The translations under genes and the position numbers were made by a program. From Scenedesmus sp. PABB004 (lineage: Eukaryota), in NCBI GenBank assembly GCA_014905635.1, contig CM026547.1, positions 1,178,001 through 1,242,000 on the forward strand: a DNA stretch of 64,000 bases, in the 5' to 3' direction. The first letter of the stretch is position 1. Each line of letters opens with the position of its first letter. This document shows, one piece after another, positions 7,227 to 28,014 of this stretch. Under the pieces are notes generated by a model that was given only the letters and a program-made list of their open reading frames with translations, did not search any database and had not been told where the DNA came from.

Positions 7227-10200
7227 CCCGCCGCGGGGCGGCGGCACCATCCCCCAGGTCGACGGCGCCGCAGACAGCGACACCGATGACGATTGGGGCT
7301 GCGGCGACGACGTGAGCGCCCAGCTCGGCGCCTCTAGCAGCAGTGACGGCGGCAGCGCGGAGCGCTCGCAGGGTCTGGCGGCGGGGCTGAGCAGCGAGGA
7401 GGAGCTGCCGCCAACTCAGCCAGCGGACGCGGCTGCCGCAGGCTGCGCGGAGCAGGGCGGGGGCGACGAGGAGGACGCGGCGCCGACCCAGGAGCTGCCG
7501 GCGGCGCTGGCGGGCGCTGCCAGGCCCGCGCCTGGGCCTGGCCCGCGCGTGGTGTCGGGCTTGTTCAGACCCGCCCGGCAGGCATCAGAGCCGGCGGCCC
7601 TCGCAGGTGCGGAGGCAGCTGCGGAGGTAGCTGCGGAGGCGGTGGGAGTCACAGCGGCGGCGGCGGCGCAGGAGCAGCAGCCAGCAGCGCAGCACAGCCC
7701 AGACGCAGGGGCGCTTGCCAGCCCCAGTGCAGGCAGCCCCTGTGTGCCGCTGAGCCTTCGCATGCTCGAGGTGCTGGGCGTGTCTGACAACCCCAGCAGC
7801 GGCGACGGCAGCGGCGACGGGGCCGACGGGGGCGTGGACGCGGCGGCGCAGGCTCGGCCGTCTCAGCCGCCGGCGTCCGCGGGCGAGGGGCGGCCGAGCC
7901 AGCGGGAGCAGCAGCAGTGGCAGGCGTGGCAGCAACAGTATGGGCAGCCGGCAGAGCTGGCGGGCAGCGCGCAGCTGCTGCTGCGGCTCTCGGGGAGCAG
8001 CGGCGCTGGTGGGACCTCGCAGCTGGCCCCTGGCGAGCCGGGTGTTAGTAGTGGCACGCCGGCAGCAGCGCCCGCAGACGCGGCTGGCCTCGCCGTGCCG
8101 GGCTCGCGGCCGCCGCAATCTGCGGGAACCGCTGCCGGCGCCATCGACCTGACCTCCGACACGCCCGCCACTGGGGCGGCAGCAACAGCGGCGGCTGGCG
8201 GGCACACGCAGAGCCAACCGGACCCGCCCGAGGCCCCCCTGGCCCGCGTGCTCAGCTTTGAGCTGCCAAGCAGCCAGGTGACGCTCACGCCGCCGGCGCC
8301 CGGTGGCGGGGGCGCGCGGACGGCGGCCGCACAGCAGCTGGCGCCGTTGGGGCTCGAGCAGCAGCAGCCCGACGCCATGGACGTGGACGGCGAGCAGCTG
8401 TCAAGTGGCTGGCCGGGCAGCAGCGCCGCGCACGGCGCGCGGGAGCAGCCGTCGCTGCGCCTGCAGCTGTCGCCGCCCTCGCAGGCGGCCCAGCCGTGGC
8501 AGCAGGGCGGCGGGCAGGCGCTGCCACCGTCGCCGGAGCAGCTGCCTGGCGCCGGCGCCGCAGCCTCCAGCCTCGCCATCGCTCGGCTGGTCGTGCTGCG
8601 GCCGCGGGCCAGGCCGCCAGACCCAGCGACCGCGGCGGAGGGCATGGCTGCGCTGGGGCTGCTGCCGGTGGCCCACCAGGAGCCGTTCTATGGCCGGCCG
8701 GCGGACAAGCCACACCAGCCCGTGGTCTTTGCGGGGCGCGAGTTCAAGTGCGGCGGCGCGCGCGGCAGCCGCGCGCCTGTGGGCCCGGCGGCGCTGGCTG
8801 ACCCCGGCCGACCCCCGCCCCCGCAGGATCCCTTCGTCCGCGGACGTGCCCGACTTTGTCTCTCACGTGCCGCCCAGCGCCGGCAACGCCGCCGACGGAC
8901 GCGGCGCGCTGGCGCGGCTCCGTGCGGCGCTGCGGCAGCCCGGCGAGCCGGGCGCGGATGCCGACGCGGACGCGGATGAGCTGCCGCGCTCGCCGCGGCG
9001 CGAGCAGCGGCACGCGCTGCTGCGCCGGCAGCTGGACGCCGCGCGCGCGGCCGACGCAGCGCTGCCGCAGCGCTATCGCGGCGTCGTGGTGCTTCAACTG
9101 CCGGTCAAGCCGCCCAGCCGCGCCCAGACAGAGGCGTGGCTGGCCGCGGAGGCGGCCAAGGCCGCGGCGCGGCGCAGCGGGCGCGGCGCGGCGGGCGCCC
9201 GCGTGCGGCCGTTTGCTGCGGCGGCCGCGCGCGGCGCGCCGGCGCCGGCGCCGGCAGCAGCGGTGGAGGCAGCGGGCGCGCTGGCGGCTGGGCGGGCGGG
9301 CGGCAGCGGGCTGGTGATGGATGCCAACAGCGGCAGGCTCGTCCCCGCCACGCCAGCCGCTCATCCCGGCAGCAGCTCCGGCGCGGCGAGCGGGGTGACG
9401 CCGCGCGGCAGCGCCGCGGCGGGCTGGAGCGGCGCGTTCCCCGCCGCCGCGCTGCGCGCCGCGGCCACGCCAAGCGGCGCGGCGCGCGGCGCCACGGCGG
9501 GCGCCGGCAGTCAGGCGAGCGACGACCCCGACGGCGAGCTCGGCCTGCTGGCCACGCCCAACCTGCTGCTGTCGCTGCCCGCGGCGTCGCAGCACGAGGA
9601 CGGCTCGCGCCGCTGCTCCGCCCCGGCCGGCGGCCGCAGCCAGCTGCCCGGCCAGCCGCAGCAGGATGACGAGGAGGGCGCCAGCGAGGGCGGCAGCGAG
9701 GGCGAGGAGGAGCTGGAGGCGCCGGCGTCGCCAAAGTATGACGAGCGCACGTTCTTCTTCTCAGAGCCCAAGCGCAGCAGCACGCGCGGCACGGCGCGGC
9801 GGCGGCGCTCGGGCAGCGCCGGTGGCGGTGCCGGTGGCGGTGCTGGCGGCGGCGGCGGCGGCGGCAGCGGCGCGGACACCGCGGCTGGGCCAGGCGCGGC
9901 GGTGGCGGGCGCCGCCCTAGCGGGCGGCGCGGCACCGACCCCCAGCTCGCGCGGGACGGCGGTGTCGCCGCTGGCGCTGGCGGGGCACGGGGAGCACATC
10001 ACCCCGCCGGCGCCGCCGGGCGGCTCGGCCGCGGCGGGCTCCAAGGCCGGCGCCGGCGGGAAGACGCCGCCGAGCCAGCTCGGCTTCAAGCAGGCGCAGC
10101 AGGGCTCGCGGCGGGCGCCGCAGCTGGAGCTGAGCATCCTCGCTGTCGAGGTGCACGCGGACAGCAGGGGCGCCCTGCTGCCCGACCCGCGGTGCGCGGG

Positions 10201-13200
10201 CGCGGCCGCCGGCGGCGCCGCGCGGCCGCGGGCGCCGCGGCCCGCGCCCACGCTCACGCCGGCCGCCGCCCTCGTCCCGCCGTCGCCGCCGCAGGTACGA
10301 CGCGGTGCGCGTGGCCGCGCTCGTGCTGCTGGCGCCGCCGCCGCCGGGCGGCGCCGCGTCGCGGCAGTCCTGCAAGGTGGTGCGGTACCTGGTGTGGGAC
10401 CCCAAGCACCCGGCGGCGGCCGCGGCGGCGGCGGACGCCGCTGCGCGGGCCGCTGCAGCTGGCGCGCCGGCGCCAGCGCCGCCGCACCAGCAGCACGCGC
10501 ACCAGAACCAGCATCAGCAGCAGCACCAGCAGCAGCACCAGCAGCACTACCCCGCTGGCGCGCCGCCGCTCGCGCCCGCCGCCGCGGCGACGGGCGCGCG
10601 CGATGCGGACGCCGCCGCCGCTGCGCGGCAGATGCTGCGGCTGCCGACGCTGCCGCCGGTGGACGCGCCAGTCGCGCGCGTGCCGCCGGGGCGCGACTGG
10701 GACGGCCTGCTGCGCTGCCTCACCCTCGGCGGCGCCGTGCCGCGCGCGGCGCAGGCGGCCGGCGCGGCCGACGCCGGCGGGGGCGGGCCGGGCTCCGGCC
10801 CCGCCGGCGGCCCCTCGCCCGCGCCGCCGCCGCCGGCGGCGCCGCCGCCGGCGCCGGCGCCCGTCCAGCTGGCCTACTATGACAGCGAGCTGGCGCTGCT
10901 GCAGGGCTTTGCGGGCGTGGTTCAGGCGCTCGACCCGGACGTGATCGTCGGCTGGGACCTGCAGACCGGCAGCCTCGGCTACCTGGCGGACCGCGGCGCG
11001 CAGCTGGGCTTCAACCTCCTGCGCGCCGCGTCGCGCACGCCCGAGGTGCGCGGCACGGCGCCCCCCGTCCCGGTGGCGGCGCCGCGGCGCACGTACGAGC
11101 GCCCGCCCGCCCGCCCGCCGCGCCGCGCAGCTGCCCGGCCTGCGCGAGGGCTCCGACGACGCGTGGGGCCGGCAGCACGGCAGCGGGCTGCACTCGACCG
11201 GCCGCATCCTGCTCAACTGCTGGCGGTGCGCGGCTGGGGGCGGGGGCCGGCGCGGGCGGGCGGGGACCGGGCTGGGCCGGCGCCGCAGCCAGCCGGCCGC
11301 GCGCCGCCGCCGCGGCGCCCCGACCTGGCCCCGCGCGCCCTGGTAGGCTGATGGTCGGCGAGCTCAAGCTGGCGCACTATTCGCTTGAGGCCTGCGTGGC
11401 GGCGGTCCTGCGGCGCCGCGTGCCGCTCGTGGCCCAGCCCACGATGGCCGCGTGGTTCGCCGGCGGGCACGCCTGCGGGCGCTGGCGCTGCCTGTCGCGC
11501 CTCGCGTGGCGCGCCGCGCTCGTGCTGGACCTGCTCGACACGCTCGACCTGCCGGGGCGCACCGCCGAGCTCGCGCGCACGTACGGCATCGACTTTTTCA
11601 GCGTCATCAACCGCGGCAGCCAGTACCGCGTGGAGAGCATGCTGCTCCGCCTCGCGCACAGCCAGAACTATCTCGCCGTCTCGCCCACTAAGGAGCAGGC
11701 GCGCACGGCGCACCGCCTGCCCCGCGGCCGCACACTCCGCGGCCGGAGGCGCGCCCTTTGACCCCCGACGCCGCCGCCGCCGCCGCTGCACGCCGCGCGC
11801 CGCAGGTGGGGTCGCAGCCCGCGACCGAGGCGCTGCCGCTGGTGATGGAGCCCGAGTCGCGCCTGTACAGCTGCCCCGTGGTGGTGCTGGACTTCCAGAG
11901 CCTCTACCCCAGCCTGGTCATCGCCTACAACCTCTGCTACTCCACCTGCGTCGGCCGCCCCGCGCACGCCGCGGCAGCGGCCGCGGCTGCCGCGGCCGAG
12001 GCGCGCGCCGCGCTCGCGGCCGCGGCCGCGGCCGGCGGCAGCGGCGGCGACGGTGGCGGCGCGGAGCAGGCGCCCGGCGCGGGCGTGCGGCTCGGCGTGA
12101 CGAGCTACGCGCCGCCCGCGAGCGCGCTGCTGCGGGGCGGGCCGTGCGAACCGGCGCGCCTCGTGCTCGCGCCCAACGGCGTGGGCTTTGTGCCGCCGGG
12201 CGTGCGGCCGGGCGTGCTGCCGCGGCTGCTGCACGAAATCCTCGCCACGCGCGTCATGGTCAAGGCGGCGATGAAGCGAAACAAGGCAGACAAGGCGCGC
12301 CCCGCGCCCGCCAACCCAAGGGCTGGGGGCGCAGCTGCGGGACGCGGCCGGCGGCTGCGGCGGCGCCGGCTAGAGAGCGTGCGCGACCAGCGCCCGCGCC
12401 CCGCCGCACGCCGCACGCCGCGCGCCGCGGTGCGCGCAGGTGCTGCAGCGCTGCCTCAACGCGCGCCAGTTTGGGCTCAAAATGATCGCCAACGTGAGCT
12501 ACGGCTACACGAGCGCCGGCTTCAGCGGCCGCATGCCCTGCGCGGAGCTGGCCGACGCGATCGTGCAGGCACGCGCCGCGGGGCACAGGGCGCGGGGCGC
12601 GGGGCGGTTTGCAGCCGCCGCCCGCGCGCGGCGCGCGCCCACGCGCCACGCCCACGCGCCGTGCCGCGCCCTCGCCTTCTCTCGCCCCCCCCCCCCAGTC
12701 GGGGCGGCAGACGCTGGAGAACGCGATCCGCCTGGTCGAGGGCAGCGCCGCGTGGCGCGCGCGCGTCGTGTACGGCGACACCGACAGCCTCTTCGTCGCG
12801 CTGCCGGGGCGCAGCCGCGCCGAGGCGCACGCGATCGGGTGCGGACCCGCGGGGCGGCGCCGCCGCCCACCGCCGCGCGTCGCGGGCGCCCGCCAGCGCA
12901 CGCGGCGGCCCGCCGCCCGCCGTGACCCGCCGCGCCCGCATGCGCGCCGCAGCGCGGAGATTGCGGCGGCGGTGACGGCGGCCAACCCGCGGCCGGTGAC
13001 GCTGAAGCTGGAGAAGGTCTACCACCCCTGCCTGCTGCAGACCAAGAAGCGCTACGTGGGCTACGCCTACGAGTCCCCCGAGCAGCGGCTGCCGGTCTTT
13101 GACGCCAAGGGCATCGAGACCGTCAGGCGCGCGGCAGGGAGGGGGGCTGCGCGCGGCGGGCGGAGCGGGGCGGCGGCGCGCGAGCGCGCGCGTGCCGCGC

Positions 13201-14680
13201 GCCAACCAACGCCCGCGGCGCCGCGCCGGCCGCGCGCAGGCGCGACAGCTGCCCCGCGGTCGCCAAGATGCTGGAGGCCTGCCTGCGCCTGCTGTTTGCG
13301 TCCAAGGACCTCAGCCAGGTCAAGGACTACTGCGCCCGCCAGTGGGCCAAGATCCTCGGCAGCCGCGTGTCGGTGCAGGCGCGCGCCGCGCCGCGCCGCG
13401 CGCCGACCCGCTCCCGCCCCGGCGCCGCCCGCGGCCGGCCGCTTGGCTCAACCGAAGGACCCCTCCCCCCCCCCCCTCCCCTCACACCCCCCCCCCCCCA
13501 GGACTTTGTGTTTTGCAAGGAGGTCCGCCTCGGCAGCTACGCGCCGACCGCGGCCACGCTGCCGCCGGCGGCCATCGTTGCGGCCAAGGCCATGGCCGCC
13601 GACCCGCGCGCGGAGCCGCGCTACGGCGAGCGCGTGCCCTACGTGGTGCGCCGCGACGCATCCCGCCACATCCGCACCTGCGCACGCCGCCGCGCCCGCC
13701 AGCTTGCCGCGCGGCCCGCCGCCGCACCCGCCAGCGCGCCGCACCACCGCGCCGCCGCGCCGCCGCCGCCGGCGCCGGCGCGGCAGGTCGTGGCGGGCGC
13801 GCCGGGGTCGCGCCTGGTCGACCTGGTGGTCAGCCCCGGCGCGCTGGTGCAGCAGGAGGGCGGCGGCCGCGGCGCGCTGCGCCTGCACGGCACCTACTAC
13901 ATCACAAAGCAGGCGCGCCCCGCGCCGGCGCGCTGCTGTGCCGCCCGGCCGTGCTGCGCCGCGCTGCGCGGCTGCGCTGCGCGGCCGGCGCCGCGCGCGA
14001 GGTGCCGCCGCCGTCGCCGCCGGCCCGCCGCGCCGGCGCCGCGGCGCAGATCATCCCCGCGCTGGAGCGCGTGCTGTCGCTCGTGGGCGCCGACGTGCGC
14101 GCGTGGTACGCGGCCATGCGCAAGCCCACGCGCCTGCTGCCCCAGAAGCGCCCCAGCGCCGCGCTCGCGCTGCCCGCCGCGCCGCCGGCGGCGGCGGCGC
14201 CGGCTTTGCGCTCGCCGCGGCGCTGGCGGGCTTTGACGCCGCGGGCGGCCGCGCGCCCGGCGGCGCCGGCGCGGGCGCGGGCCCCCTGGCGCCGCCGGGC
14301 CGCCGGCGCCGGCGCCGCACGGCGGCGGGCCGCCGGGCGCGTCCAGCGCGACGATCGACACCTATTACCTGTCCCGCCACTGCGCGGTGTGCGACGAGCT
14401 CACGCGCGCCGCCGACACGCTGTGCGAGCGCTGCCGCGGCGCGCCGTCGGTGTCGGCCGCCGCGCTCGCAGCGCGCGCCGCGCGGCTCGAGCGGCAGCAC
14501 CAGCACCTCGTGCGCCTGTGCCAGAGCTGCGGCGGCGGCGGCGGCTGGGACGGGCGGCAGGGCGGTGTCGTGTGCACCTCGCTCGACTGCGGCGTGTTCT
14601 ATGAGCGCTGGAAGGCGCGCGGCGAGCTGCGCAGCATGGCCGCGCTCGCGGCAGCGGGCCTGGCGCTGCTGTCGGGGTGA
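3313..14680 (+). CDS. REV3: DNA polymerase zeta catalytic subunit (family B), about 20+ introns, long low-complexity middle region
   Basis: N-terminus VRLVAIDHYMAPP...[91 protein letters not shown]; C-terminal CAVC..CERC and CQSC..CTSLDCGVFY; stop TGA 14678-14680. Confidence 0.97.
7174..7224 (+). repeat. (CAG)17 polyglutamine tract in REV3
   Basis: Uninterrupted CAG run. Confidence 0.95.
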
Positions 14681-14980
14681 TGGTGTTGATGTAGAGGCAG
14701 GGGCGGCCGGGCTGAGAGGGGCTGAGGGGCTGAGGGGCCCGGGAAGCTCGGCAGACGGGCGGCGCAACGCCCGCCGTCTGTGGGTCGCGCTCGGCAACCA
14801 CGCACGCTCGCTCAACCTTGCCGTCGCTCGCCCTCGCGCTCTCAGAGTCCGCTCGTGCGTCCTGTGCACGCGAACAGCGGCCTGGCTTGCCGGGGCAGCG
14901 CAGTCAAGGTCAAGGTGCGCCAGCGCCGGCCGGCAGGCCCCGCCGCTCGCCGCGGCGAGCTTCCGACCCGTGAGGGCACG

Positions 14981-17493
14981 ATGATCAGCCCGCCCGCGGC
15001 TCATGAGCAGGCGGCCATGGCCAGCAGCGCGGCTGCCGACGCGGGCGCGAGCTGCGACGACTTTGCTCGTGAGGCGGCCGCTGGCGGGCGCCCCCGGGCG
15101 GCTCACAGCCCGGCCAGGCCCGCTCACTCACGGCCGCCGCCGCTCGCAGTCTATCGCAGCATCGCCGCCGCGCTCCGCGCGGACGACGACGCTGAGTGCG
15201 CCGCGCCGCCGCAAGCGCGCTCCGCCGACCTCGAGGTGGTCATCCCTGGCGACGGCGCGGGCGAGCCGCCGCCGCCGCCCGGCGCGGGCGCGGCGGCAGC
15301 CGCGGCACAGCCGCGCGCGGTCAAGGCGTGCACGCCCGACTTCACGCGGCGCCAGATCCGTTCGCTGCGCCGCCTCTGGCCGATCGCGGCGCCAGAGGTG
15401 AGGACGTCGTCACGCCTGCAGGTGCGCGCAGCCGCGCGCGGGCGCGGCGCGTCGCGCACGGCGCCAGCAGCGCCCGCGCCCTGCGGCACCGTGACGCCGC
15501 GCTGGTGCTGCCACCTTCAACAGGGCGACTACCAGCTGCTGGATGAGCTCGGCCGCGGCGCGTTCGGCACGGCGTGGCGTGCGCGGCACGCCGCCAGCGG
15601 CCGCCTCGTGTGCGTGAAGCAGGTGTCCGCCGGCCGCGCCGCGGCGGAGCTCGCGGCCGAGGTGGCCGTGCTTGCGTCGCTGCGCAGCCACCCCAACATC
15701 ATATCGTACGAAGACAGCTTCATGGCGGCGGGGCGGCTGCACATCGTGATGGAGCTCGCCGACGGCGGCGACCTCGCCGCCCTGCTCGCCGCGCGCCGCC
15801 GCGCCGGCGCGCACCTCACCGAGGATGAGGTTCTCGGCTACCTGGTCCAGGTGCGGGAGGCCGCTGCCGCTGGCGAGCTGGCCACCTGCGTGATCGATCT
15901 CGCGCGGCGGCGGGGCTCCTGTGCCTAACGCTGCCGCGCCGCGCAGGTGTTGTCGGCCCTGGCCTTCAGCCACGCGGCGGGCGTGCTGCACCGGGACGTC
16001 AAGCCCGCCAACCTGCTGCTGGGCGGCGGCGGGCTGCTCAAGCTGGCAGACTGGGGGCTGAGCAAGGTCCTCAGCGCGGGCCCGACGAGCGACGGCGGCG
16101 CCGCGCGGCAGCCAAGCGGCGGCGGCGGCACGCTGCCGGACGCGCGCGCGGGCCCGCTCGCGACGAGCTTCGTCGGCACGCCGGCCTGCATCGCGCCGGA
16201 GCTGCTCGCGGCGGCGCCGACCGGCTACAACATGCGCGCGGACGTGTGGGCGGCGGGGTGCCTGCTGTTCGAGATGGCCGCGCTGCGGCCGCCGTTTGCG
16301 GCGGAGCGCGTGGCCGCGCTGTACCGGCTCATTCGGCGCGGCCACGCGCTGGCGCTGCCGCCGCGCTGCAGCGCCGCGCTGCGCGGCCTCGTGGCGCGCA
16401 TGCTGGCGCCCGACCCCGCGGCGCGGCCGAGCAGCGCGGAGCTGCTGCAGGACGAGCTGCTCGCGCCGCACCTCACGCGCCACCAGCAGCGCCTGCGCGA
16501 GCTCGGCCTGGAGCTGCCGCCGCTGCCGTGCGCGCCGCCGGGGGGCGCCTCGGCCGCCGGCAGCCTCAGCGCCGGCGGCGGCGCCAGCGCCGCGGGCGCG
16601 GCGCGCGGCGCTGGCGACAGCGCAGCGGGCAGCTGCAGGGCAGCGAGCTGCAGCGGCAGCGGCGCGGGCTCGGCGCTCTCCTTTCGACGCGCCGCGCCGC
16701 TCGCCAGCGCGCCAGCTGCAGGCGCAGCGGCCGACCCGCTGCCCGCGCCGGGCGGGAGGCCAACCGGCCCGCTCCAGCGCCTGGTGCGCAGGTGGCTGGG
16801 GCGAGCCGCCAAGCCCGCGGCGCCCGCCGGCGGCGGGCCTGGCCAGGCGGGGCAGCGCGCCGCTGCGCAGGCGGCGGCGCCGCGGGAGCTGCGCTGCTTC
16901 GCGCCGCCCGGGCACGCGCTCAGCACCGTGGTCAGCGGCGGCAGCAGCCAGCACAGCGCAAGCCCCCGCGCGTGCGACAGCAGCGCGGGCGGCGGCGGCA
17001 GCGCGGCCAGGGTGCCGGCCGCAGCAGCAGCTGCAGCAGCAGCACCGAGCAGCGCAGCCCCAGCCGCCGCCGGCGGCGCGGCGCCTCCCTCGCGCTGGTC
17101 CAAGATGCTGGCGGCGTCCGGTCTGGCCGCGGCGGTCGGCTGCGGCGATGGCGCCGCGCCAGCACCCCCAGCACGCCGGCCCAGCCGGAGCAGCAGCAGC
17201 AGCAGCAGGGCGAGGTCCAGCCGCTGCGGACCATCAGCGAGCGCAGCGAGGGCTGTGCGGCGCCACGGTCGGCGGCGGCCAGCCCCGCGTCCTGCGCCTC
17301 GCAGCCAGCGCCGCCCGAGCTACGGCTGTGGCAGGAGCAGGTGGCGGCGGCGGAGGCGGTGCGGGGGCTGCGCGAGCGCCTGGGCGCGCGGCGCGGCGCG
17401 GCGGCCAGCCCTGGCTGCCGCAGCTGGGGCAGCCGCAGCGAGGCGTCGCCGACCGGCAGCGCGGCGCCGCTGGCAGCGAGTCCAGGGACGTGA
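14981..17493 (+). CDS. NEK/NIMA-like Ser/Thr kinase (start and 3' end uncertain; introns about 15422-15523 and 15851-15946)
   Basis: LGRGAFG, VCVKQV, HPNIISYEDSF, LHIVMELADGGDL, HRDVKPANLLL, DWG, FVGTPACIAPE, YNMRADVWAAGCLLFEMAALRPPF. Confidence 0.85.
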
Positions 17494-17829
17494 GGCAGGG
17501 GATTGGGGCTGTGGGGAGGCATGCATTTCAGCCGAAACTCCCGGCGGCCTGCGGCCGAAACTCGCCGTCACGCCCCGCCAAAACGACGCTCCCGCAAAAA
17601 GCCCAGCGCGCCACACACCCACGCTGAGGTCCTCCCGCCGCGCGGGCGCATTCCGCGCAGCTCCGGGACCCGCTAGCCGCACCCTTGACAGCCTCTCACG
17701 CCGCGCGACAGCGCCGCGAGCAGCAACCGCCGCGCCGCGCCGCACGGCCCGCCGCCGCGCGCCTGAGCGGCGAGCCTGACCCACGAGCGCGCCTGAGCCG
17801 CCCTCCGCTCCGCCGGCCCGGCGCCGGGC

Positions 17830-20403
17830 ATGGCCGCCTTCCCGCCCGGCGCGCCGGCGCCGCTGCAGCTCGTGAGCGTCGACCCCGACAGCGGCGCGGT
17901 CTCGTGCGGCGCGGAGGCGCTGGCGGCGCTGCGCGCGATCAGGACGCCCGTGGCGGTGGTGGCCGTCTGCGGGCGCGCGCGGACGGGCAAGAGCTACATC
18001 CTCAACCAGCTCCTCGGGCAGAGCACGGGCTTCCGGCTCGCGCACAGCCACCGGCCGTGCACCAAGGGGCTGTGGATCTGGAGCCAGCCCTTCAAGCGCG
18101 TGGGGCCCGACGGCAACGAGTTCCACGTGGTGCGCGCGCGCGCGCAGGGGGGCGGGCGGCCGCGCGCCGCCGCGCGCGCCAGCCAGGCGCCAGCACCCGC
18201 GCACGACTCCACCACCCCCGCCGCCGCCGCCGCCGCGCGCAGGTGCTGCTCGACTCGGAGGGCATCGACGCGTACGACCAGCGCGCGCAGGACGGCGTGC
18301 AGCTGCTCTCGCTCGCGGTGCTGCTCGCGAGCAGCTTTGTGTTCAACCAGATGGGCCCCATCGACGAGGCAGCGCTCGACCGGCTCAGCCTGGTCACGCA
18401 GATCACCAAGCACATCCGCGTGCGCGCGACCGGCCCCGCCGCGGGTGCGGGCACCAACGGCGCCGTCGCCTGGCAGCGGTCGGGGCGCGCCGCGGCAGCG
18501 CGCCGCCGGGCGAGCGGACGGACGCCCACCGCCCCCTCCGCCGCGCCGCCCGCGTGCGCGCGCAGAGGACGCGAGCGAGCTGTGCTCGTTCACGCCGTCC
18601 TTCATCTGGCTGCTGCGTGACTTCTACCTAGACCTCGAAGAGGACGGACGCAAGGTGGGGCTGTGACGCCGCGGCGCCGCAGGGCGACGCGCGCCCGCGC
18701 CGGCGCCCTCACGCTGCAGCAGCACACCGGCAGGCGCAGCGGCCCCGCGGCGGCGCTCGACGGCGGCGCCCGCGCCGGCCGCGCGGGGCGCAGGTGTCGC
18801 CGCGCGAGTACCTGGAGACGGCGCTGTCGCCGTCGGCGGGCGCGGGCGCGGCGGTGGAGGCGAAGAACCACGTGCGCGCGCCTGCGCCCGCCCGCGGCCC
18901 GCCGCCCCGCGCCGACCCCCCAGCCGCGGCGGCGCCACGGCGGCGCCGCGCTGCTGCTGCGACACAGGCCGTCGGCCGCCGCCGCCGCCGCCGCCGCGCG
19001 CAGATCCGTGGCAGCATCAAGTCGCTCTTCCCCGACCGCGACTGCTTCACGCTGGTGCGCCCGATGCACGACGAGCGCGCGCTGAACCACCTCGACGCGC
19101 TCAGCCCCGACCAGCTGCGCCCCGAGTTCCAGGAGGTGCGGCGACGGCGGCGGCGGCGGCGGCGACGGTGGCGACGGCGGCGGGGCCTGCGCCAGCGGCA
19201 GGCCGAGCGGCCGCAACCCCCGCCCCGCCGACCGCCGCCGCAGGGCGTGGCGCGCCTCACGCGGCTGCTGCTGGCGCGCGCGCAGCCGAAGCGCGTCGGG
19301 CTCGCGCCCGTGAGCGGCGCGGTGCTCGCGGGCCTGGCCGAGGCCTACTGCGCCGCGATCAACGCCGGGGCCGTGCCCACCATCGCGACCGCGTGGCAGG
19401 TGCGGCGCCGCGCCGCGCGGCCGCCGCCGCCGCGCTGCGCAGGTCGCCGCGCGGCCGCCCACCGCGCGCGCGCCGCCCGCCCCGGCCGGCCGGCGTTGCA
19501 GGGCGTGGCCGAGGCGGAGTGCCGGCGCGCCGCGGCCGCCGCGGAGGAGACGTACCGGCAGGAGTTTCAGCTCGACGGCGCGGCGGCGGAGCCCGAGTCG
19601 CTGCTGCTGGAGCACCTGGTGCGCGCGCGGGGCGGGCGTGGGTGGGGGGCGGGCGCCGGCGGGCGCGCCTCACGCGCGCGACCGCCCGCATGCGCCCGCG
19701 GCGCAGCGCTGCGTGGCGGCGGCCAAGAGCACGTTCAAGGCGATCGCGGTCGCGGAGCCGCGCGCGCGCGCGGCGGCCAAGGCCGGCCTGCTGGAGGCGC
19801 TGGAGGCGCGCTACGCGCTGATACGGGAGGGCGCGCTCGCGCGCGCGGCGGCGGGCGTGGACGCCGCGCTGCTCACCGCGGCGCAGCAGATCAGCACGGT
19901 GCGCGGCGGCGGCGCGCCCGCCCCAGGGGGGGGTGCTCTCGTCTCGCCCTCGCCGCGCCCTCACCGCGCCCACGCCGCGCCTCTCCTCACCGCGCCCGCG
20001 CCCGCGCCAGGCGGTGCGGCTGCACAGGAGCTGGGCGGACGTGCAGGCGCAGGTCGGCCGCACGACCGCCGAGTATGACGCCGCGACGGCGGGGCCGACC
20101 AAGTGGCCGCGGCTCACCGCGTTCCTGCAAGCCCACTACGGCCACATGGTCGCCGACTTTGTGCAGCGCTGCGAGGCCGACGCCGACAGGCGCGTCGCCG
20201 AGGCGCGCGCCGCGGCGCGCGAGGCCGAGGCGCGGCTCGGCCGCGCGGAGAGCCTGGCGGCCAAGGCCGAGACGCACGCGCGCGACCTCGCGACGGCCGA
20301 GGCGGCGCTCAAGCAGCAGCTCGCGCTCGAGCGCGACCGGCGGTCGTCGAGCTTCGGCGGGTTTGGCTTTGAGAGCTGCTGCAAGGCGCCCGCGGCGCTG
20401 TGA
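17830..20403 (+). CDS. Guanylate-binding protein (GBP/atlastin-family large GTPase), about 10 exons
   Basis: P-loop VAVCGRARTGKSYILNQLLG, CTKGLWIWS, LLDSEG, FIWLLRDF, IKSLFPDRDCFTLVRP, AINAGAVPTIATAWQ, helical C-terminus; stop TGA 20401-20403. Confidence 0.93.
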
Positions 20404-20971
20404 CCGCGGCCGTGGTTTTTGTCGCGCGGGCGCTGCGATTGCCGCCCCCGCCATTTCATGCTCGCGGCGGCGCAGGGAGGGCGACCCTGGTGAAACGTCC
20501 TCTCCCAGCTGCCCGCGCTCCAGCCCTCCACGCCCCTGCCGTCGCCGCCGCTCCTGCCGCCGCCCTTGGCGCTGCCGGCCCTCACGATCGCGGGGGGCGC
20601 GGGGACGCGGCGCGGCGGCGCGCACCAGGTCCACACTGCCCAGATCCACGCCCCCGTCTGTGCGGCCCCCACCCCAGCTCGTGGCGGCCTGCGGTTGTGT
20701 GTTACACAAAACCCCCGGCCGTGCACAGCCGCGCGCGCTCGCAACAGCGTAATCACCTGACCTGACGGCGCGGTGCACGTGTGCGGCGCGCCGCGCGACC
20801 GCACCGGCGCCCCCCCCCCCCTCACGCGCTTCCCGCCGCCGGCAGCGCGCGGCGCGCCCTGCCGAGCGCGTTGATCGCGTTGATCGCCGCGCGGCGCCCC
20901 CCCCCCCAGCTGGGTGCGGCAGCGACCTGCAGGTCGCGGCGCCGCGCCGCCACGCCCGCCTCAGCCCAGTC

Positions 20972-21050
20972 GGGCACGGCCTCGCCCCCGTCCAGCACGA
21001 CGGTGGCCAAACTTGGCATCGTCGTGCTCGACGAGGGCGACGCCGTGCCC
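20972..21050 (+). ncRNA. Stem-loop 1 (pre-miRNA-like)
   Basis: GGGCACGGC/GCCGTGCCC, TCGCCC/GGGCGA, CGTC/GACG, AGCACGACG/CGTCGTGCT, GCCA/TGGC, separated mostly by single mismatches. Confidence 0.55.
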
Positions 21051-21158
21051 TTGAGCGCCCAGCCGGGCTCGCGCCGGCCGTGCTGGTTGAAAGGCTGGCG
21101 CTGGCCAGCGACAGCGCTCCAACAAGCACGGCCGGCGCGAGCCCGGCTGGACGTTCAG
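21051..21158 (+). ncRNA. Stem-loop 2 with a perfect 26-bp inverted repeat (pre-miRNA-like)
   Basis: 21059-21084 CCAGCCGGGCTCGCGCCGGCCGTGCT is the exact reverse complement of 21125-21150. The stem extends by GTTG/CAAC inside and TGAGCG/CGTTCA outside. Confidence 0.6.
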
Positions 21159-21415
21159 GTTTGGCACCGTCGTGCCGGACGGGGGCGAGGTGAGGGTGAA
21201 ACGCGAGTGAGAAGCAGCGCCTCAACCTGCGCGCGGCGGCGGCGCGGCGCGCGGCGCGGCCGCGCGCGCCAGAGGCGGGGCAGCGCAGCGCAGCGGGCAG
21301 GGGGCGGCCACCCGCGCCCTGCGCCCGCCGAGCCCACCAGGCAGAGCCAGCGGGGGGAGGTGGCTGGCTGGCTGGGCCTGGTGGAGTCGGCGACGAGCGC
21401 CACAAACGCGGCTGC

Positions 21416-21533
21416 CTGCTGCCGCCCGCGGCGCGCTCACGTCGCCCATCACGTCGGACCAGGAGCTCTTGTCGGCACGCTGACAAGAGGTTCTGGTCGG
21501 ACGTGGTGGGCGGCTGAGCGCGCCACGCAGCAG
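21416..21533 (+). ncRNA. Stem-loop 3 (pre-miRNA-like, stem of about 43 bp)
   Basis: GGCGCGCTCA/TGAGCGCGCC, GTCGCCCATCACGTC/GACGTGGTGGGCGGC, GACCAGGA/TTCTGGTC, CTCTTGTCGG/CTGACAAGAG; 4 G-U pairs and no A-C mismatches on the + strand. Confidence 0.6.
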
Positions 21534-21589
21534 CTGGTGCTGCAGCGGAGCCGCCCCCCGCCGCCGCTCCTGCGCGCGTTTCGATGGGG

Positions 21590-21687
21590 CAGCGTGCCAC
21601 GGATCTTGGCGCTCCGAGCAGGCGTTGTACACCGCGCCCAGGCGGTGTTCAACCACAGCCTGGAGCGCCAAGATGCGCGGGCAGCTG
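21590..21687 (+). ncRNA. Stem-loop 4
   Basis: ATCTTGGCGCTCC (21603-21615)/GGAGCGCCAAGAT (21662-21674) is perfect; inner GTTG/CAAC and ACACCGC/GCGGTGT; outer TGCC/GGCA and CAGC/GCTG. Confidence 0.55.
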
Positions 21688-21703
21688 GAGCTCCTCGCGC
21701 GTG

Positions 21704-21791
21704 CCGTGGCGGCGTGGCACCTCGTGCTGGTTGATGTTCAGGAAGCCAGGCTTCTTCAACTTCAAACACCACGAGTTGCTAGGCACTGCGG
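21704..21791 (+). ncRNA. Stem-loop 5
   Basis: TGGCA/TGCTA, CTCGTG/CACGAG, TG/CA, TTGA/TCAA, GTT/AAC, AGGAAGC/GCTTCTT, with regular 1x1 mismatches. Confidence 0.5.
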
Positions 21792-22025
21792 CGGAGCAGC
21801 AGCAGCAGCGGTGCTCGGCGGCCGCGCGGCGGCGCCGCGTGCCCCTGCCCGGGCGTGGAGTGGGCCCGCTGAGCGAGGGCAGGGGAGGTGCGCCGCCCGC
21901 GGCCGTGCGCCGCCCGCGGCCGCGCGCCCGCCGCGCCGCAGGGCCCCAGAACCCAGGCGGCGGCGCAACTTTCGCCAAGGTCGCGGCGCCGCGCCGCCAG
22001 GCGGGGCAGCCGCCTCTCGGCCGCC

Positions 22026-22080
22026 CGCCGCGTTTGTGCGTGGAGAGCAGGATCCCTGCTGACCAAGCGCCAACGCGGCG
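22026..22080 (+). ncRNA. Stem-loop 6 (shorter)
   Basis: CGCCGCGTT/AACGCGGCG, GTGC/GCGC, TGG/CCA, AGCAGG/CCTGCT. Confidence 0.4.
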
Positions 22081-22557
22081 CGCAGAGGTCATCCCTGCCC
22101 CCGACGCGCGCGGGGGGTCGTCGATCATGATCTTGGTGTGCAAGGGCGCGCCGTGCTGAGCGGGCCGCCGGGCGGCGCGGCGGCGGCGGCCCAGCGCGCG
22201 CCGCGAGGCTGGTGTGCCGTCGCGGGCGGTCGAGGAGATGAGGCCAGGGCGGTGCAGTGGCGGCAGCGCGTCTGCGGTGCGGTGCGGCGTCGAGGCGGCG
22301 CGCGGCGCGAGCTGGCGCAGGTGGGGGGGGGGGGCGCGGGAGGCGCGCGCGGGAGGTGAGCGCGTGCGCACGCGCCGCGCCTGCGCCGGTCAAAGCTGCT
22401 GGCGACCCGGCGCCGCCTGCGTCGGCGCTCCCAAAGCGGCTCGGCACCGCCATGAGCGGCGGGCGGCAGGGGAGGGCGCTCGGCGCTCGAAGAGGGGCGG
22501 TCAACGTGGCGCGCGTTGCCGCCCGGTGCGCCGCAGGGGGCATGCGGCTTCCTCGTC

Positions 22558-22666
22558 ATCCTCGCTGCCGCCGGGGGTCGTGGCGCTTCGGCGGGTTCGG
22601 CTGCAGCTCTCGCAGCTGCACGGCCAGCGGCGCCTGTGTGACGGCCGCGCTTTTGGCACCGAGGGT
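22558..22666 (+). ncRNA. Imperfect long stem-loop (weak)
   Basis: ATCCTCG/CGAGGGT, TGCCG/TGGCA, GGTCGT/ACGGCC, GGCGCT/GGCGCC, TGCAGCT/AGCTGCA. Confidence 0.3.
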
Positions 22667-22891
22667 CACCGATTGCCGCCCGCCCTGTTCACCCTCGCGG
22701 CCCTGGTGACACGTCCTCTCACATATCGCACGCTCCAGCACGCGACAGGGCCCTGCCGCCGCCGCCGCGCCGCTCCTGCTGCTGCCGCCGCTCTCGCCGC
22801 CGCCCCTCGCGCCGCCGCCCTGCTTCGTGCTCGCGCCCGCGGGTAGCTCGCGGCATCCCCTTGCCGCCCGGGTGGCGAGGCGGGCGTCAGC

Positions 22892-23545
22892 ATGCCGCAG
22901 AAGCCGCTCAAGGTGGGGAAGAAGATTGCGAAAGCGCCCGCCGCCAACCGGCATGGCAAGACGCCCAAGATGAAGAAGGGTGAGCGCTCGCGACACGCGC
23001 ACGACGCGTGGGCGGCGACGCGGCGGCTGCGGGCGCCGGCGCGGCGCGGCGCGGGGCGCCGCTGCTCACGGCGGCCGCCCGCCGCTGCCGCCTCGCGTGC
23101 GCAGGCAAGTTCGACCTCAAGCCCAAGAAGGCCGCCCTCGTGGCCAAGTGGAAGGACGAGAAGGTCCGGGGCCAGCGGCGGGCCGGTGGCGGGCCAGCGG
23201 CGGCCCGAGCGCTTGCGCGAGCAGCAGCCCGCGCCCGCGCGCCGCCCCACCGCGCGGCGGCGCCGCCCGGCACATGCCCGCGCAGGACCTGACCAAGATG
23301 ATCAACGCCAACAACGAGTCCAACGCCGCAGCCAAGGCGCAGCAGTCGGGCGGGCACCTCACGGTGGTGCGCGACGCGCGCCCAGCGGCGCGCTGGCCGG
23401 GCAGCAGCCGGGGCGCAACGAGCTCAGGCGCGCGCCGCCGCCGCCGCCGGTGCCGCGGCCGCAGGTCAAGGCCGCGCCCGTGCTGGCGCCGGCGGACGCC
23501 AAGCAGAAGGCCAAGGCCGCCAAGGCGGGCGCGGCGCCGAGCTGA
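22892..23545 (+). CDS. Small basic protein, Leydig cell tumor 10 kDa (C19orf53)/UPF0390-like; exons 22892-22979, 23105-23163, 23286-23366, 23465-23545
   Basis: MPQKPLKVGKK...KKGKFDLKPKKAALV...KDLTKMINANNESNAAAKA...GGHLTVVKA; clean GT-AG introns. Confidence 0.8.
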   Translation: MPQKPLKVGKKIAKAPAANRHGKTPKMKKGERSRHAHDAWAATRRLRAPARRGAGRRCSRRPPAAAASRAQASSTSSPRRPPSWPSGRTRRSGASGGPVAGQRRPERLREQQPAPARRPTARRRRPAHARAGPDQDDQRQQRVQRRSQGAAVGRAPHGGARRAPSGALAGQQPGRNELRRAPPPPPVPRPQVKAAPVLAPADAKQKAKAAKAGAAPS

Positions 23546-24228
23546 CCGCCGGCGGCGGGCCGAGAGCAGCAGCAGCAGCTGGTTTGGCGGCGCCCACTGC
23601 GCCCGCCCCCATGGGCCGCGCCGAAGGCGCGCGACCCGGGGCGCGCGTCGCGCGCAGCGCGCGACAGCGCCGGCGGCGGAGCTCGCCGCCGCAGGCTTGC
23701 GGCGCCCGCGCGCCGCGTTGTGGGGCGCCGAGTGGCGGCGTCGATGGCGACCGCGCAGGGCAACGGCCGCGCCGCGCGTGGGGTGATTTTCCTGCGAGGC
23801 AGCTGGCCGGTCAGCCCAGCGACGCGCGCCTCCCCGCGCTCTGGCGCCGCGCCCAGAGCCCCTCCCAAGCTCCGCCCAGGCTCTTCGAACGCAGCGCCGC
23901 GCCAGCAGACCGGCGGGCCGCGCCCAGGCTCGCCCGCGCTCGCCCGCGCTCTTTTCAGCTCGCCCGCCGCGCCGCGGGTGCGGGGCTGGCGCTAAACCTG
24001 AGCGGCTGCGCCGTACCAGGCACGTGAAGGCAGGCGAGGCGCGTGGGGGCGGCCGGGCGGGCAGCGGGCCGCGGCAGCAGCGAGCGCCGCGGCAGCAGCG
24101 CCCCCGTGCCGGCAGCGCCGCTAGGCACGCGGCGCTGCGGTCCGTTCGGCTATAATGGATCTTTCCATGCTAGTCCCCGCCCGCCACGCAGCCGAAGGGC
24201 TTCACGGAGCGGCGCGAGCGCCGGCAGC

Positions 24229-25498
24229 ATGAGCTCCTCGCCGGGCGGCGGCGACGGCCGCAGCAGGGGCGGCGGCGGCCGCGCGCCGCGCCCCGCGGAT
24301 GGAGGTGGCACCGGGCTGACGGCGGCCGCGCCGGCGCAGCCGTCCGGCGCGCAGCTGCCGGCGGTCAGCGCGGCGGCGCTCGCCGCGGCCGCGGCGGCGG
24401 CGCTGCTGCAGTCGGCCCAGCTGGGCAGCGGGGGGCACGCCACCGGCGACGGCGAGGCCACCGACGGCGAGGCTGACGACGGCGAGGCAGAGGCGGCGCA
24501 GCCGGAGCTGTTCGTGGTGACCAGGGCGCGCGCCAACGGGGCGGTGCCGCTGGAGCCGCAGGGCGAGGACAAGCGGTGCGCGGTGCGCGCGGGGCGCTGC
24601 GCGGCGCGGCCGCAGGCGGGGCGCGAGCGTTTCCCACGTGGGTGTACACACGTCCGCGCCGCGCCGCCGCGCCCGCCCGCCAGCGACCGCGCCGCCGTCG
24701 CACGGCGCGCCATGGTGGCGGTGGGCAAGAAGCCGACCTCCAGGTTCCGCGGCGTCACGCACCACGTCCGCACCGGGCGCTACGAGGGACACTTCTGGCT
24801 GGAGGGCAAGCAGGCGCGTAGAGAACGCGCGCACGCGCGGCGCGCCCCCTGCCGCCGGCGCTGAGCTTGACCAGGGGCTGCTCGCGCGCGCGCCGCCCGC
24901 CAGGTGTACCTGGGCGGCTTTGACAGCGAGGCCGAGGCGGCGATGGCCTACGACCTGGCGGGTGCGCTCGCGCGTGGGCGGGCCGCGGTCGCCGGGCGCG
25001 CGGCGCGCGCGCCGGCCGCGGCGCCGCGGCTCACACGCCCGCCGCGCCGCGCAGCCGTCAAGTTCCGCGGCACCGCCGCGAAGACCAACTTCAGGTGCTG
25101 CGCCAGCACCTGCGCCCGCGGCGGCGCACAGCACGAGCGCACCCCGGCGGGCCTGCCCCCCGGCCGGCGCCGAGGCGGCCGCGCGCCCGACCCTGCTGCG
25201 CGCACACTGCCGCGCCCGCGCCCGCTGCCGCAGCATCACCAACTACGAGGCCGAGCTGGACGTGCGCGACCAGGTGGGCGCACGGCGCCGTGCCTGCAGC
25301 GCCGCCGTGCTGCGCCCCCGCGCGGCGCCGCCGGCTCACGGCCGCGCCGCGCCGTGCGCCGTGCCGCGGCAGGTCGACGGCGACGAGCTCATCGCGGCGC
25401 TGCGCCGCGGCAGCCGGGGCCGTTCACCGCGAGCTCGCAGTACCGCGGCGTGACGCGGCACGCCAAGGGCCGCTGGGAGGCGCGCATCGGCGGCCCGC

Positions 25499-25535
<37 letters not shown>

Positions 25536-28014
25536 GGCGGGCGGCGGCGCGCCGCCCGCCCGGCGCAGAAAGTACACCTACCTCGGGCTCTTTGACACCG
25601 AGGTCGAGGCGGCGCAGGCGTACGACCGGTGCGCTGCAGCGCCGGCTGGCGTGCTGCGCGCAGCGGCGGCCGGACCGCCGCCGAGGCCGCGTGGGCGCCC
25701 GCCGAGGCCGCGTGGGCGCGCGCGCACGCACAGGGCGGCGGTGCAGCTCAAGGGCCTGGCGGCGATCACCAACTTTGACCTGTCGGCGTACGCGGACGAG
25801 CTCGGCGCGGGTGCGGGGCCCGCGGCGCGGCCGGGAGCTGCGTGGCCGCGAGCCCGCGGCCCGGCCCGCACGCGGGCACGCTGGCGGGGCCGCCGCGGCG
25901 CGCGGCCGAGCCGCCGCCGCCGCGCCCGCCGCCGCCGCTGCCGCAGACGCGCTGGCGCGGGCCGCCGCCGCGCGCGAGGCGGCGCACGAGGGCGTCGAGG
26001 CCGAGCCGGTGCTCAACCGCTTTGGGCGCGCGACACGCAAGACCGCCGCCGCCGCGCCGGCGGCGTGGGCGGAGGGCGGCTCGCCCACCAGCAGCGGCGG
26101 CACGGGCGAGGCGCCGGGCGAGGCGCCGGGCGCGGCCGGCGCGCCCAGCAAGGCACGCAGCGGCGGCCGGCGCAGCGGCGCGTCGGGCAGCCGGCGCAGC
26201 AGCGCGTCGGGCGGCAGGCGCCCCAGCGGCTCCTCGGGCAGGCGCGGTGGCGGCACTGCCGCCGCCGCCGCCGCCGCCGCCGCGGCCGCGGGCCCGGGCG
26301 CCGCCGGCAGCCTGGCTGCGCTGGCACCGGCGCATCTCATGGTGGCGGCCGCGTTTGGCGGCCGCGGCGCGGCGGCGGCGGCGGCCAGCGCGGCGGAGCT
26401 GGAGCTGCTGGCCGAGCAGCGGGCCTTCCAGGCGCAGCTGCTGGAGGCGGAGCAGCAGATGCAGCAGTGGCGGCTGCGGCAGGCGCAGCTCGCGCAGCAG
26501 ATCCAGCAACACTCGGAGCACCAGTCCCTGCTGCAGCAGCTGCAGGCCCAGGCGCTGGGCGCGCGCGCCGCCGCGGCGGGCGGCCCCGGCCTCGGCCGCG
26601 CGGCCAGCCTGCACGCGCACGGCCCGCCCGCCGCGCCGGCGGGGGGCGCCGGCCGCGCCAGCCTCGGCGGCCGCGCCAGCCTCGGCGGCCCGCCGGCCGC
26701 GGCGGCGCGCCGGGCAGCCCCGTGCTGCCGGGCCTGCCGCCGCTGCGCCGCGTGCACACGGCGCCGCCGGTGCCGACCGCGCTGCTCGGCGAGCTGGAGG
26801 GCGCGGGGCTGCTCGGCGGGCGGGGCTTTGACTTTGCGCTCCCCTGCGACGACCCGCTGGACGACGGCGGGCTGCTCACCGGCCTCGCCGTCCCCGAGGC
26901 GGTGACGCCGCGCCTCGCAGGGTTTGCGCCGCCGCCGGGCCGCACGATCACGACCGCGCTCGGCGGCGGCGGCGGCGGCAGCGGCGCGCCGGGCGGCGGC
27001 GGCCCGCTGTCGCCGCAGCTGCTGTGCACGAGCGGCCCCGCCGGGCCCAAGTTTGTGCTGGCCGCGCCGGCCGGCGGCGGCGCCGTGGGTGCCGGGGCCG
27101 GCGCGGCGGCGCAGCTGCAGCAGCTGCTGGTGGACTGCTGGGGCGGCTACGCCGCTTCCCCCTCCGACTCTGACGTCCACTCGAGCGACGACGAGGGCAG
27201 CCTGCTCCAGGCCAGCCTGGGCGGCGGTGCCCCGGGCAGCACCCCGGGCAGCGCCACGCCCGGCGCCGCGGCCGTCGTCGCCACCGCCGGGCTGCAGTGG
27301 TGCACGGGCGGCCCGCTGCAGCTGGGCGACGCCGGCGGCAGGCGCGGCGCGATGGAGTGGGAGGCTGGCGCCGCGCCTCGGCTGGGGCTGGGGCTGGGCG
27401 CCGGGGGCGGCTTTGACGCGCCCGCCGCGCCCGCGGCGCCGCGCCCGATGATCCCCGCGCCGGCGCTCAACCCCGGTGGCGCGCCGCCCGGCGCCGCGCC
27501 CGCCGCGGCCGCGCCGACCGCGGTGGCGCAGCCGTCGGCGGCGTGGCAGCAGCTCGGCAGCCTGCTCACTGGCGGCGCGGCACCGCCGCGGCCGGCGGCA
27601 CTGGAGTTTGCCTTTGCCCCGCGCGACGGCGCCTCACCGGCCGCGGCGCTGCCGCCGGTGCAGCAGCCGCAGCCGCCGGCCGCGGCGCTGCGCCCCATCA
27701 GGACCGGCGCCGCGGCCGGGGGCGGCGCGCGCGACGGCGCGGGCCTGCGCACGGCGAGCGCCGCCGCCAACGACCTGCTCGCGGCGGCCGCCGCCGCGGG
27801 CGCCGGCCGCGCGGTGACGACCGTCGGCGGCGGCGTGGTGCGGCTGGGCAGCCACGAGGCCAACAACAACGCGCAGGCGGCGGCGGCCGGCGGCGGCGAG
27901 CACTGCGAGGGCGCCGGCGGCGAGGGCGGCGGCGACGAGCGTGGCATCAGGCAGCTCCCGCCCGACGCGGCGCTGCCGCCCAAGAAGCGCCGGTGCGTGA
28001 CGGCGACGCCGTGA
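24229..28014 (+). CDS. Double-AP2-domain transcription factor (AP2/ANT/WRI1-like); apparent frameshifts near 25420 and 26700
   Basis: TSRFRGVTHHVRTGRYEGHFW...KQ|VYLGGFDSEAEAAMAYDLAAVKFRG..AKTNF; linker LIAALRR; SSQYRGVTRHAKGRWEARIG...[42 protein letters not shown] nuclear-localisation-like tail. Confidence 0.9.

Follow-up and report, generated by a model that had tools for sequence, protein, structure and literature searches.

Hairpins and inverted repeats can be created whole, in one event, by template switching, after which further events modify them and point mutations follow, as described by Monttinen et al. (2023; PMC10710096). In Chlamydomonas, hairpins located in 3' untranslated regions (3' UTRs), introns and non-coding RNAs are cleaved by DCL3 into microRNAs (miRNAs) and small interfering RNAs (siRNAs), with a lowering of the host mRNA (Valli et al., 2016; PMC4817775). 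The present analysis concerns a compound palindrome and the chain of hairpins to which it belongs, located in a stretch of 64,000 nucleotides (nt) of Scenedesmus sp. PABB004 (contig CM026547.1, positions 1,178,001 to 1,242,000), hereafter called the window. The known kinds to which this locus would belong are template-switch hairpins and algal non-coding hairpin loci. The window is eukaryotic nuclear DNA with a GC content of 76-86% in each 2-kb bin, and the host is a chlorophycean green alga with a GC content of about 80%.

The palindromic module is built from two pairs of elements and one additional copy. A, A' and A'' are one forward and two reverse copies of one sequence of about 33 nt, and B/B' form the centre. 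The repeat finder returned the B/B' arms at 21052-21104 and 21105-21157 (53 nt, 87% complementary, spacer of 0 nt) and the A/A'' arms at 20980-21013 and 21157-21190 (34 nt, 88% complementary). The pairing of A with A' was found to extend to 20954-21005 and 21017-21068 (52 nt, 77% complementary), and the stretch 20972-21050 is self-complementary at 85% over 80 nt. Repeat finder and alignment recovered A, A' and A'' where a preliminary description of this DNA had placed them. That description had also reported a single bulge and a single mismatch over 32 nt between A and A'', in agreement with the pairwise alignment, where one mismatch and one single-base indel separate A from the inverted sequence of A'', and where A' differs at several positions. 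The perfect 26-bp B/B' stem reported there was likewise found: the window contains the 26-nt core of B exactly two times, on opposite strands and with 0 mismatches. The 26-nt core of A also has two occurrences, one per strand, with 0 and 1 mismatch. For both cores the number expected from 100 shuffles was 0.00. Apart from the copies of A, no arm has another copy in the window.

The left part of the module (20960-21104) was aligned with the reverse complement of 21105-21215. Three blocks matched (24/25, 6/6 and 47/55), so that 77 of the 86 aligned arm bases are identical overall, and the alignment contains one gap only, the 38 nt at 21012-21049 which correspond to A'. With this lone gap, the module is one palindrome with a secondary fold-back copy in one arm. 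It is a single zero-spacer palindrome with arms of about 86 nt (20980-21190, centre at 21104/21105), the left arm of which carries the 38-nt insertion A'. The nested arrangement of the preliminary description is therefore retained for its elements, and the nesting itself is better described as one palindrome plus the insertion of A'.

An assembly artefact in the form of a palindromic chimera was considered as well, and rejected on the grounds that the arms are diverged (77/86 matches) and that the module lies in the middle of the contig.

The module is the first of six neighbouring significant hairpins (H1 to H6) which occupy about 830 bp (20954-21780). In a GC-corrected fold scan of the whole 64 kb with segments of 120 nt (about 2,130 segments according to the script settings), the seven most extreme segments were all located within 20971-21720, the top one being 21421-21540 around H4 with a residual z of -5.41. 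When folded in one piece, the 901 nt of 20900-21800 formed a chain of hairpins with a z of -16.1 on the + strand and -18.2 on the - strand (20 shuffles). Taken individually, all six hairpins reached z values from -4.5 to -12.8 on both strands, and none of 200 shuffles was as good for any of them. They are unrelated in sequence, the copies of A excepted.

The module alone (20950-21200, 251 nt) folds at -199.2 kcal/mol on the + strand (z -12.79) and at -202.7 kcal/mol on the - strand (z -14.69); in both cases, none of 200 shuffles reached such a fold energy. With DNA parameters the corresponding values are -119.8 kcal/mol and z -13.25, and the minimum-energy fold uses A:A''. Because three copies of the same 33 nt are present, one forward and two reverse, two mutually exclusive folds are unavoidable. 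The pairing probabilities of A with A' and of A with A'', P(A:A') and P(A:A''), were read out from partition-function folding of stretches with different flank lengths. The dominant partner of A flips with the length of flank included, and the best structures of each type are separated by a gap of 0.1-5.5 kcal/mol. The two exclusive folds of the preliminary description are thus present and nearly isoenergetic, and the partition-function calculation confirmed their bistability, with a dominant fold that depends on flank length. The bistability is real in silico.

The predicted barrier between both folds (findpath estimate) amounts to 33-43 kcal/mol, a value which suggests a kinetically trapped fold rather than a fast and reversible switch. 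The local A/A' hairpin, as the first helix to form, would be the one to be trapped. Bistable switches such as the expression platforms of riboswitches or helices occluding splice sites share with the module a segment (here A) with two exclusive partners of similar stability, and also a helix ending at a GT that resembles a splice donor. In contrast to them, the module has no ligand-binding domain, and its barrier, due to helices of about 33 bp, is far above that of known switches.

Table 1. Coordinates of the elements of the palindrome, hairpins, folded segments and flanking features (positions in the window; energies in kcal/mol).
Feature	Coordinates	Strand	Details
A, outer left arm	20980..21011		30/31 aligned bases match the reverse complement of 21160-21190, one 1-nt indel
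A', 38-nt fold-back insertion	21012..21049		Reverse-complement copy of ~38 nt just upstream (~20972-21011), loop of few bases
B/B' perfect 26-bp core	21059-21084 / 21125-21150		Inside hairpin H2
A'', outer right arm, second reverse copy of A	21157..21190		Repeat finder, alignments
H1 (A/A' extended into left flank, plus start of B)	20954..21068		+ strand -80.5, z -8.86; - strand -96.4, z -11.11
H2 (B/B', zero-spacer palindrome)	21050..21159		+ strand -95.2, z -10.97; - strand -96.7, z -12.79
H3 (26-nt arms, 15-nt loop)	21326..21392		z -4.49 on +, -5.30 on -
H4 (~47-bp stem, 4-nt loop)	21427..21527		+ strand -89.6, z -12.41; - strand -73.4, z -9.69
H5 (46-nt arms, 76% complementary, 6-nt loop)	21590..21687		z -6.07 on +, -6.23 on -
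H6 (shorter, more AT-rich stem)	21716..21780		-29.0 on both strands, z -4.85 and -5.40
Folded segment	20950..21200	+	P(A:A') 0.87, P(A:A'') 0.007
Folded segment	20970..21191	+	P(A:A') 0.00, P(A:A'') 0.93
Folded segment	20900..21300	+	P(A:A') 0.15, P(A:A'') 0.76
Folded segment	20700..21500	+	P(A:A') 0.44, P(A:A'') 0.46
Folded segment	20700..21500	-	P(A:A') 0.66, P(A:A'') 0.22
Last exon and stop of GBP-like GTPase gene	20011..20403	+	Pfam, homologue tblastn, C-termini of four homologues; TGA 20401-20403
TGTAA, candidate polyadenylation signal for a minus-strand transcript through the chain	20702..20706	-	Motif; just beyond the hairpin chain
Acceptor-like CCCAG	20965..20969	+	Sequence; motif present, uninformative
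Donor-like GTGAGGG, abutting the end of A''	21190..21196	+	Sequence; AG/GTGAGG, GT at 21190

The architecture of the module, together with an origin by inverted duplication, is regarded as very likely. The inverted copies adjoin their source, A' being the reverse complement of the preceding ~38 nt and the B/B' spacer measuring 0 nt. From such zero- or short-spacer copies placed beside their source, we infer template switching or fold-back synthesis. The palindromes would have arisen by repeated local inverted duplication, through switching of the template during replication or through fold-back synthesis, and point mutation would then have diverged the arms to 77-88% complementarity. Hairpin birth by inverted duplication had been put forward as the alternative in the preliminary description, and the anatomy of the module, with its fold-back copy A' and its zero-spacer palindrome, fits it. 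The hairpins described by Monttinen et al. (2023; PMC10710096) share with A/A' and B/B' a reverse-complement copy which stands beside its source with a loop of few bases, and further the succession of events on an existing hairpin, the size of a pre-miRNA and the mismatches acquired later. The events described in that study were deduced from primate and rodent ancestral reconstructions, whereas the event proposed here is deduced from anatomy alone. Compared with the single events described there, the present locus is more elaborate, as it combines a series of six hairpins with an arm present in three copies. The exact pattern of the B arm had 0 matches in metagenome and prokaryote contigs, and a degenerate pattern of the A arm had 0 in viral contigs; both are weak tests, as these collections probably do not include this organism. 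Further work on hairpins from replication template-switch mutations has reportedly been done by Monttinen and Loytynoja (PMC8794818).

The chain lies in a gap between two genes of the + strand. The upstream gene encodes a GBP-like GTPase (Pfam PF02263 and PF02841). With its last exon as query, proteins of 554-558 amino acids were found with 62-67% identity, and the named proteins among the closest relatives are from Tetradesmus obliquus, which fits a chlorophycean host probably close to the Sphaeropleales. In the alignment, four homologues of 554-556 amino acids terminate within a few residues of the stop at 20401-20403. The protein thus ends at 20403 as its homologues do, and no downstream exon is needed to complete it. 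The module starts 567 nt after this stop. The next clear gene downstream starts with the ATG at 22893 and encodes a small basic protein, which leaves a gap of 2.5 kb in which no coding gene was detectable; the rest of the window is densely genic. No Pfam family was obtained for the open reading frames (ORFs) of the gap 20404-22893, either among 29 ORFs at E<=0.01 or among 150 ORFs at E<=1e-4, and the codon-usage score in the gap is mostly below 8, as compared with 10-23 in the GBP-like gene and the downstream gene. The ORFs 20766-21734 (+ strand) and 21652-22389 (- strand) had no match among proteins of near length. Since the GBP-like protein is complete at 20403 and no credible homologue was found for the frames of the module, nothing supports an exon at this place, and it can be stated with high confidence that the module is not a coding exon.

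A search of 1.84 billion representative proteins with the - strand ORF 20825-21154 gave a single match, to a protein of 1078 amino acids. This candidate was judged spurious, as it consists of a translated tandem repeat with 16 weak matched stretches. A decayed duplicate of the GBP-like gene was sought in 20404-22900 by tblastn with the frames of that gene, and yielded only low-complexity Arg/Ala/Pro alignments, which are uninformative. With the last exon of the GBP-like gene, 597 pattern stretches were matched in metagenome contigs, 0 of which were confirmed by tblastn.

A diverged direct repeat is present around the hairpin tract, the copies being located at 20337-20586 and 22571-22811 (67% identity, 267 aligned columns, E ~6e-16). 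The first copy runs from the last ~22 codons of the GBP-like gene through its stop to ~180 nt beyond, and the second lies just upstream of the + strand gene that starts at 22893. As both copies bracket the 2-kb hairpin tract, the latter may have been inserted long ago or may belong to a segmental duplication. The gene-free gap also contains runs of 10-13 C (or G) at 20808-20820, 20896-20908 and 22326-22335, two of which flank a 9-nt tandem repeat (CGCGTTGAT, 2.3 copies) at 20867-20887.

A Dicer-like nuclease would find substrates in the stems of 26-47 bp if the tract is transcribed, which could happen within a long 3' UTR of the GBP-like gene or within a non-coding transcript of the - strand whose end is close to the TGTAA at 20702. 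Small RNAs, a destabilised host transcript, or both would then result from cleavage, as for the UTR hairpins of Chlamydomonas. As regards the stem-loop expected of a miRNA or hairpin precursor (a stem of at least about 20 bp), H2 offers 26 perfect bp within arms of ~50 nt and H4 about 47 bp. No Rfam family matched at its gathering score in the window. At E<=1, only seven families, all of miRNA precursors, were obtained in 20300-22900; all of them stayed below the gathering score, the best being mir-4672 with 37.1 bits against 98. These sub-threshold matches show a pre-miRNA-like shape only.

TGTAA is the polyadenylation signal of chlorophytes. It occurs 7 times in the window, where 2.56 are expected and where none of 100 shuffles reached 7. 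Given the copy on the - strand just beyond the hairpin chain, a minus-strand non-coding transcript through the hairpins, as predicted from this motif, and a long 3' UTR of the GBP-like gene are equally plausible. Some 300 nt beyond the stop of the GBP-like gene, this copy belongs to a quasi-palindrome (TGTGTTACACA, 20695-20712), which contains TGTAA when read on the - strand and TGTTA when read on the + strand; convergent transcripts could both end in this region.

Among described systems, the DCL3 hairpins of Chlamydomonas reinhardtii are among the closest. Both algae belong to the Chlorophyceae, and the hairpins reported by Valli et al. (2016; PMC4817775) are also long, near-perfect stem-loops in non-coding sequence; the present ones follow a stop codon at a distance of a few hundred nt, a position that would be appropriate for hairpins of a 3' UTR. 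The difference lies in the products, as small RNAs are known for the hairpins covered by that study, whereas those of the present locus are known from DNA sequence alone. A literature search on the RNA interference machinery of Sphaeropleales returned nothing specific. Polycistronic clusters of miRNAs or hairpin RNAs likewise contain several hairpins of 65-115 nt in less than 1 kb; here, in contrast, the hairpins are unrelated in sequence except for the copies of A, and their co-transcription is hypothetical.

By analogy with these systems, a real role as hairpin RNA or Dicer substrate is possible, and it is considered about as likely as purely neutral palindromes. The best combined explanation, which is advanced tentatively, is that of a non-coding compound palindrome which was produced by serial inverted duplication and which may serve as substrate of a Dicer-like nuclease. 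A bolder version is unlikely: in a Sphaeropleales-like alga, the region 20954-21780 would be a polycistronic gene for hairpin RNAs which is young and continues to grow, as successive template switches add Dicer substrates to it. Its transcript might be made from the - strand, with its end at the TGTAA at 20702, and the alternative folds of A, A' and A'' would offer different stems to the nuclease and yield different small RNAs. If it were true, the choice of the fold would be kinetically selected, by the direction and the speed of transcription.

Several observations weigh against the combined explanation. The first concerns the order of events. A and A'' (one mismatch and one indel in 32 nt) are more alike than A and A' (~85%), which suggests that A' is older than the large palindrome or that the outer arms were homogenised later. 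The similarities of the arms would thus reverse the simple order, with the large palindrome first and the insertion of A' later. The second concerns selection at the RNA level, which would leave a consistent strand preference. No such preference is seen: H1 is more stable by 16-17 kcal/mol on the - strand and H4 by ~16 kcal/mol on the + strand, and the G-U pairs over H1-H5 number 10 on the + strand and 11 on the - strand. Finally, the arms are moderately codon-like on both sides of the palindrome (20825-21154 on the - strand, 21105-21190 on the + strand), with a score of ~11 per 25 codons as compared with 10-23 for real exons. The arm peptides read ...VVLDGGEAVP... on the - strand and ...GTVVPDGGE on the + strand. 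It is possible that the arms derive from a coding fragment; as no homologue of these peptides was found, such an origin is unsupported.

The same lack of strand preference, in fold energies as in G-U counts, would fit neutral DNA palindromes, in other words debris of template switching or fold-back synthesis without any RNA role, either untranscribed or transcribed to no effect. Such debris would have collected in the one larger tract which is free of constraint in a window dense with genes. This alternative is a serious one, although it too is rated as a possibility short of probable. It accounts for arms without any other copy in the window and for the fact that no Rfam family was reached, and the dense genes elsewhere in the window could confine such events to the gap. 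Within the gap, however, the six palindromes are gathered in ~830 bp and the other ~1.6 kb has none. As long palindromes whose spacers are short are prone to deletion, the survival of the present ones to an arm divergence of 12-23% is not obviously neutral. That a gene-free gap of 2.5 kb is kept in a compact genome also hints at a non-coding gene.

A remnant of a foldback or MITE-like transposon is quite improbable. In this reading, A and A'' would flank an internal palindrome as its terminal inverted repeats, with the neighbouring hairpins as additional elements of this kind. Terminal inverted repeats of 33 nt with 94% similarity (30/31 aligned bases and one 1-nt indel) in a non-coding, palindrome-rich sequence have indeed the appearance of such an element. 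No target-site duplication was found, however, since the left flank (...GGGCACGG) differs from the right flank (TGAGGGTG...), and no second copy of any arm is present in the window. The absence of the B arm from metagenome and prokaryote contigs and of the A arm from viral contigs points in the same direction, although these are the weak tests already mentioned.

Very improbable is a role of the DNA structure itself, in which cruciform-prone intergenic palindromes would cause transcription or replication to pause or to end, or would mark a fragile site. The zero-spacer palindrome does fold strongly with DNA parameters, and it is located between the 3' end of a + strand gene and the possible end of a minus-strand transcript. 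On the other hand, cruciform extrusion in chromatin needs supercoiling, no known motif was found and specific support is missing.

The preliminary description had proposed a putative exon of the + strand which nearly coincides with the module, and a conformational switch that could couple hairpin processing to splicing. In this reading, 20970-21189 would be the exon, and the exchange between A/A' and A/A'' would hide or expose the 5' splice site at 21190. The motifs on which this proposal was based are present. CCCAG and AG/GTGAGG bracket the module exactly, and the A/A'' helix ends at the donor-like site. They carry little information, however. The + strand of the window has 1772 CAG, on average one in about 36 nt, and 96 CCCAG, so that the acceptor-like site carries no information. 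GTGAG has 46 occurrences and AGGTGAG only 3 on the + strand and 1 on the - strand; the donor-like site is thus only moderately unusual. Eight introns of the GBP-like gene were deduced from homologue tblastn and sequence. Their donors are GTGCG in seven cases, GTGGG in one and GTGAG in none, and their acceptors end with GCAG in seven cases and with CCAG in one, which makes both candidate sites minority types; the first donor read in the downstream gene is GTGAGC. Two of the three + strand frames are open across the segment, an ordinary situation at a GC content of about 78%, since 64 stop-free frames of at least 150 codons overlap 14000-28000.

In spite of the rare donor-like motif, the open frames and the nearly isoenergetic folds, a splicing-coupled exon fold is hardly credible and stays unsupported, as the GBP-like protein stops at 20403 like its homologues, the ORFs 20766-21734 (+ strand) and 20825-21154 (- strand) have no Pfam family or credible homologue, the introns of the neighbouring gene use other sites, and a barrier of 33-43 kcal/mol counts against a reversible switch.

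Two observations were made at a distance from the hairpin tract. The bin 50001-52000 has the highest GC content of all 2-kb bins (0.856) and a strong AT skew (0.41). A glycine transfer RNA (tRNA-Gly, GCC) was called by ARAGORN at 10731-10814 on the + strand, within the region of a gene resembling REV3 (DNA polymerase zeta) and inside the ORF 10134-11348, which has a DNA_pol_B_exo1 match. An intron could contain it, or the GC-rich DNA could have led to a false call.

With the idea of a splice switch being unsupported, the present value of the finding is modest. The significance of the compound palindrome and its neighbours depends on their processing. If the hairpins are left unprocessed, the anatomy of the locus would still document cleanly a series of fold-back or template-switch mutations in a nuclear genome of extremely high GC content. 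If they are processed, it would represent a compact natural example, from a lineage of green algae other than Chlamydomonas, of the growth of a small-RNA locus through inverted duplication, and would illustrate the way in which three copies of one arm give rise to alternative folds of a precursor.

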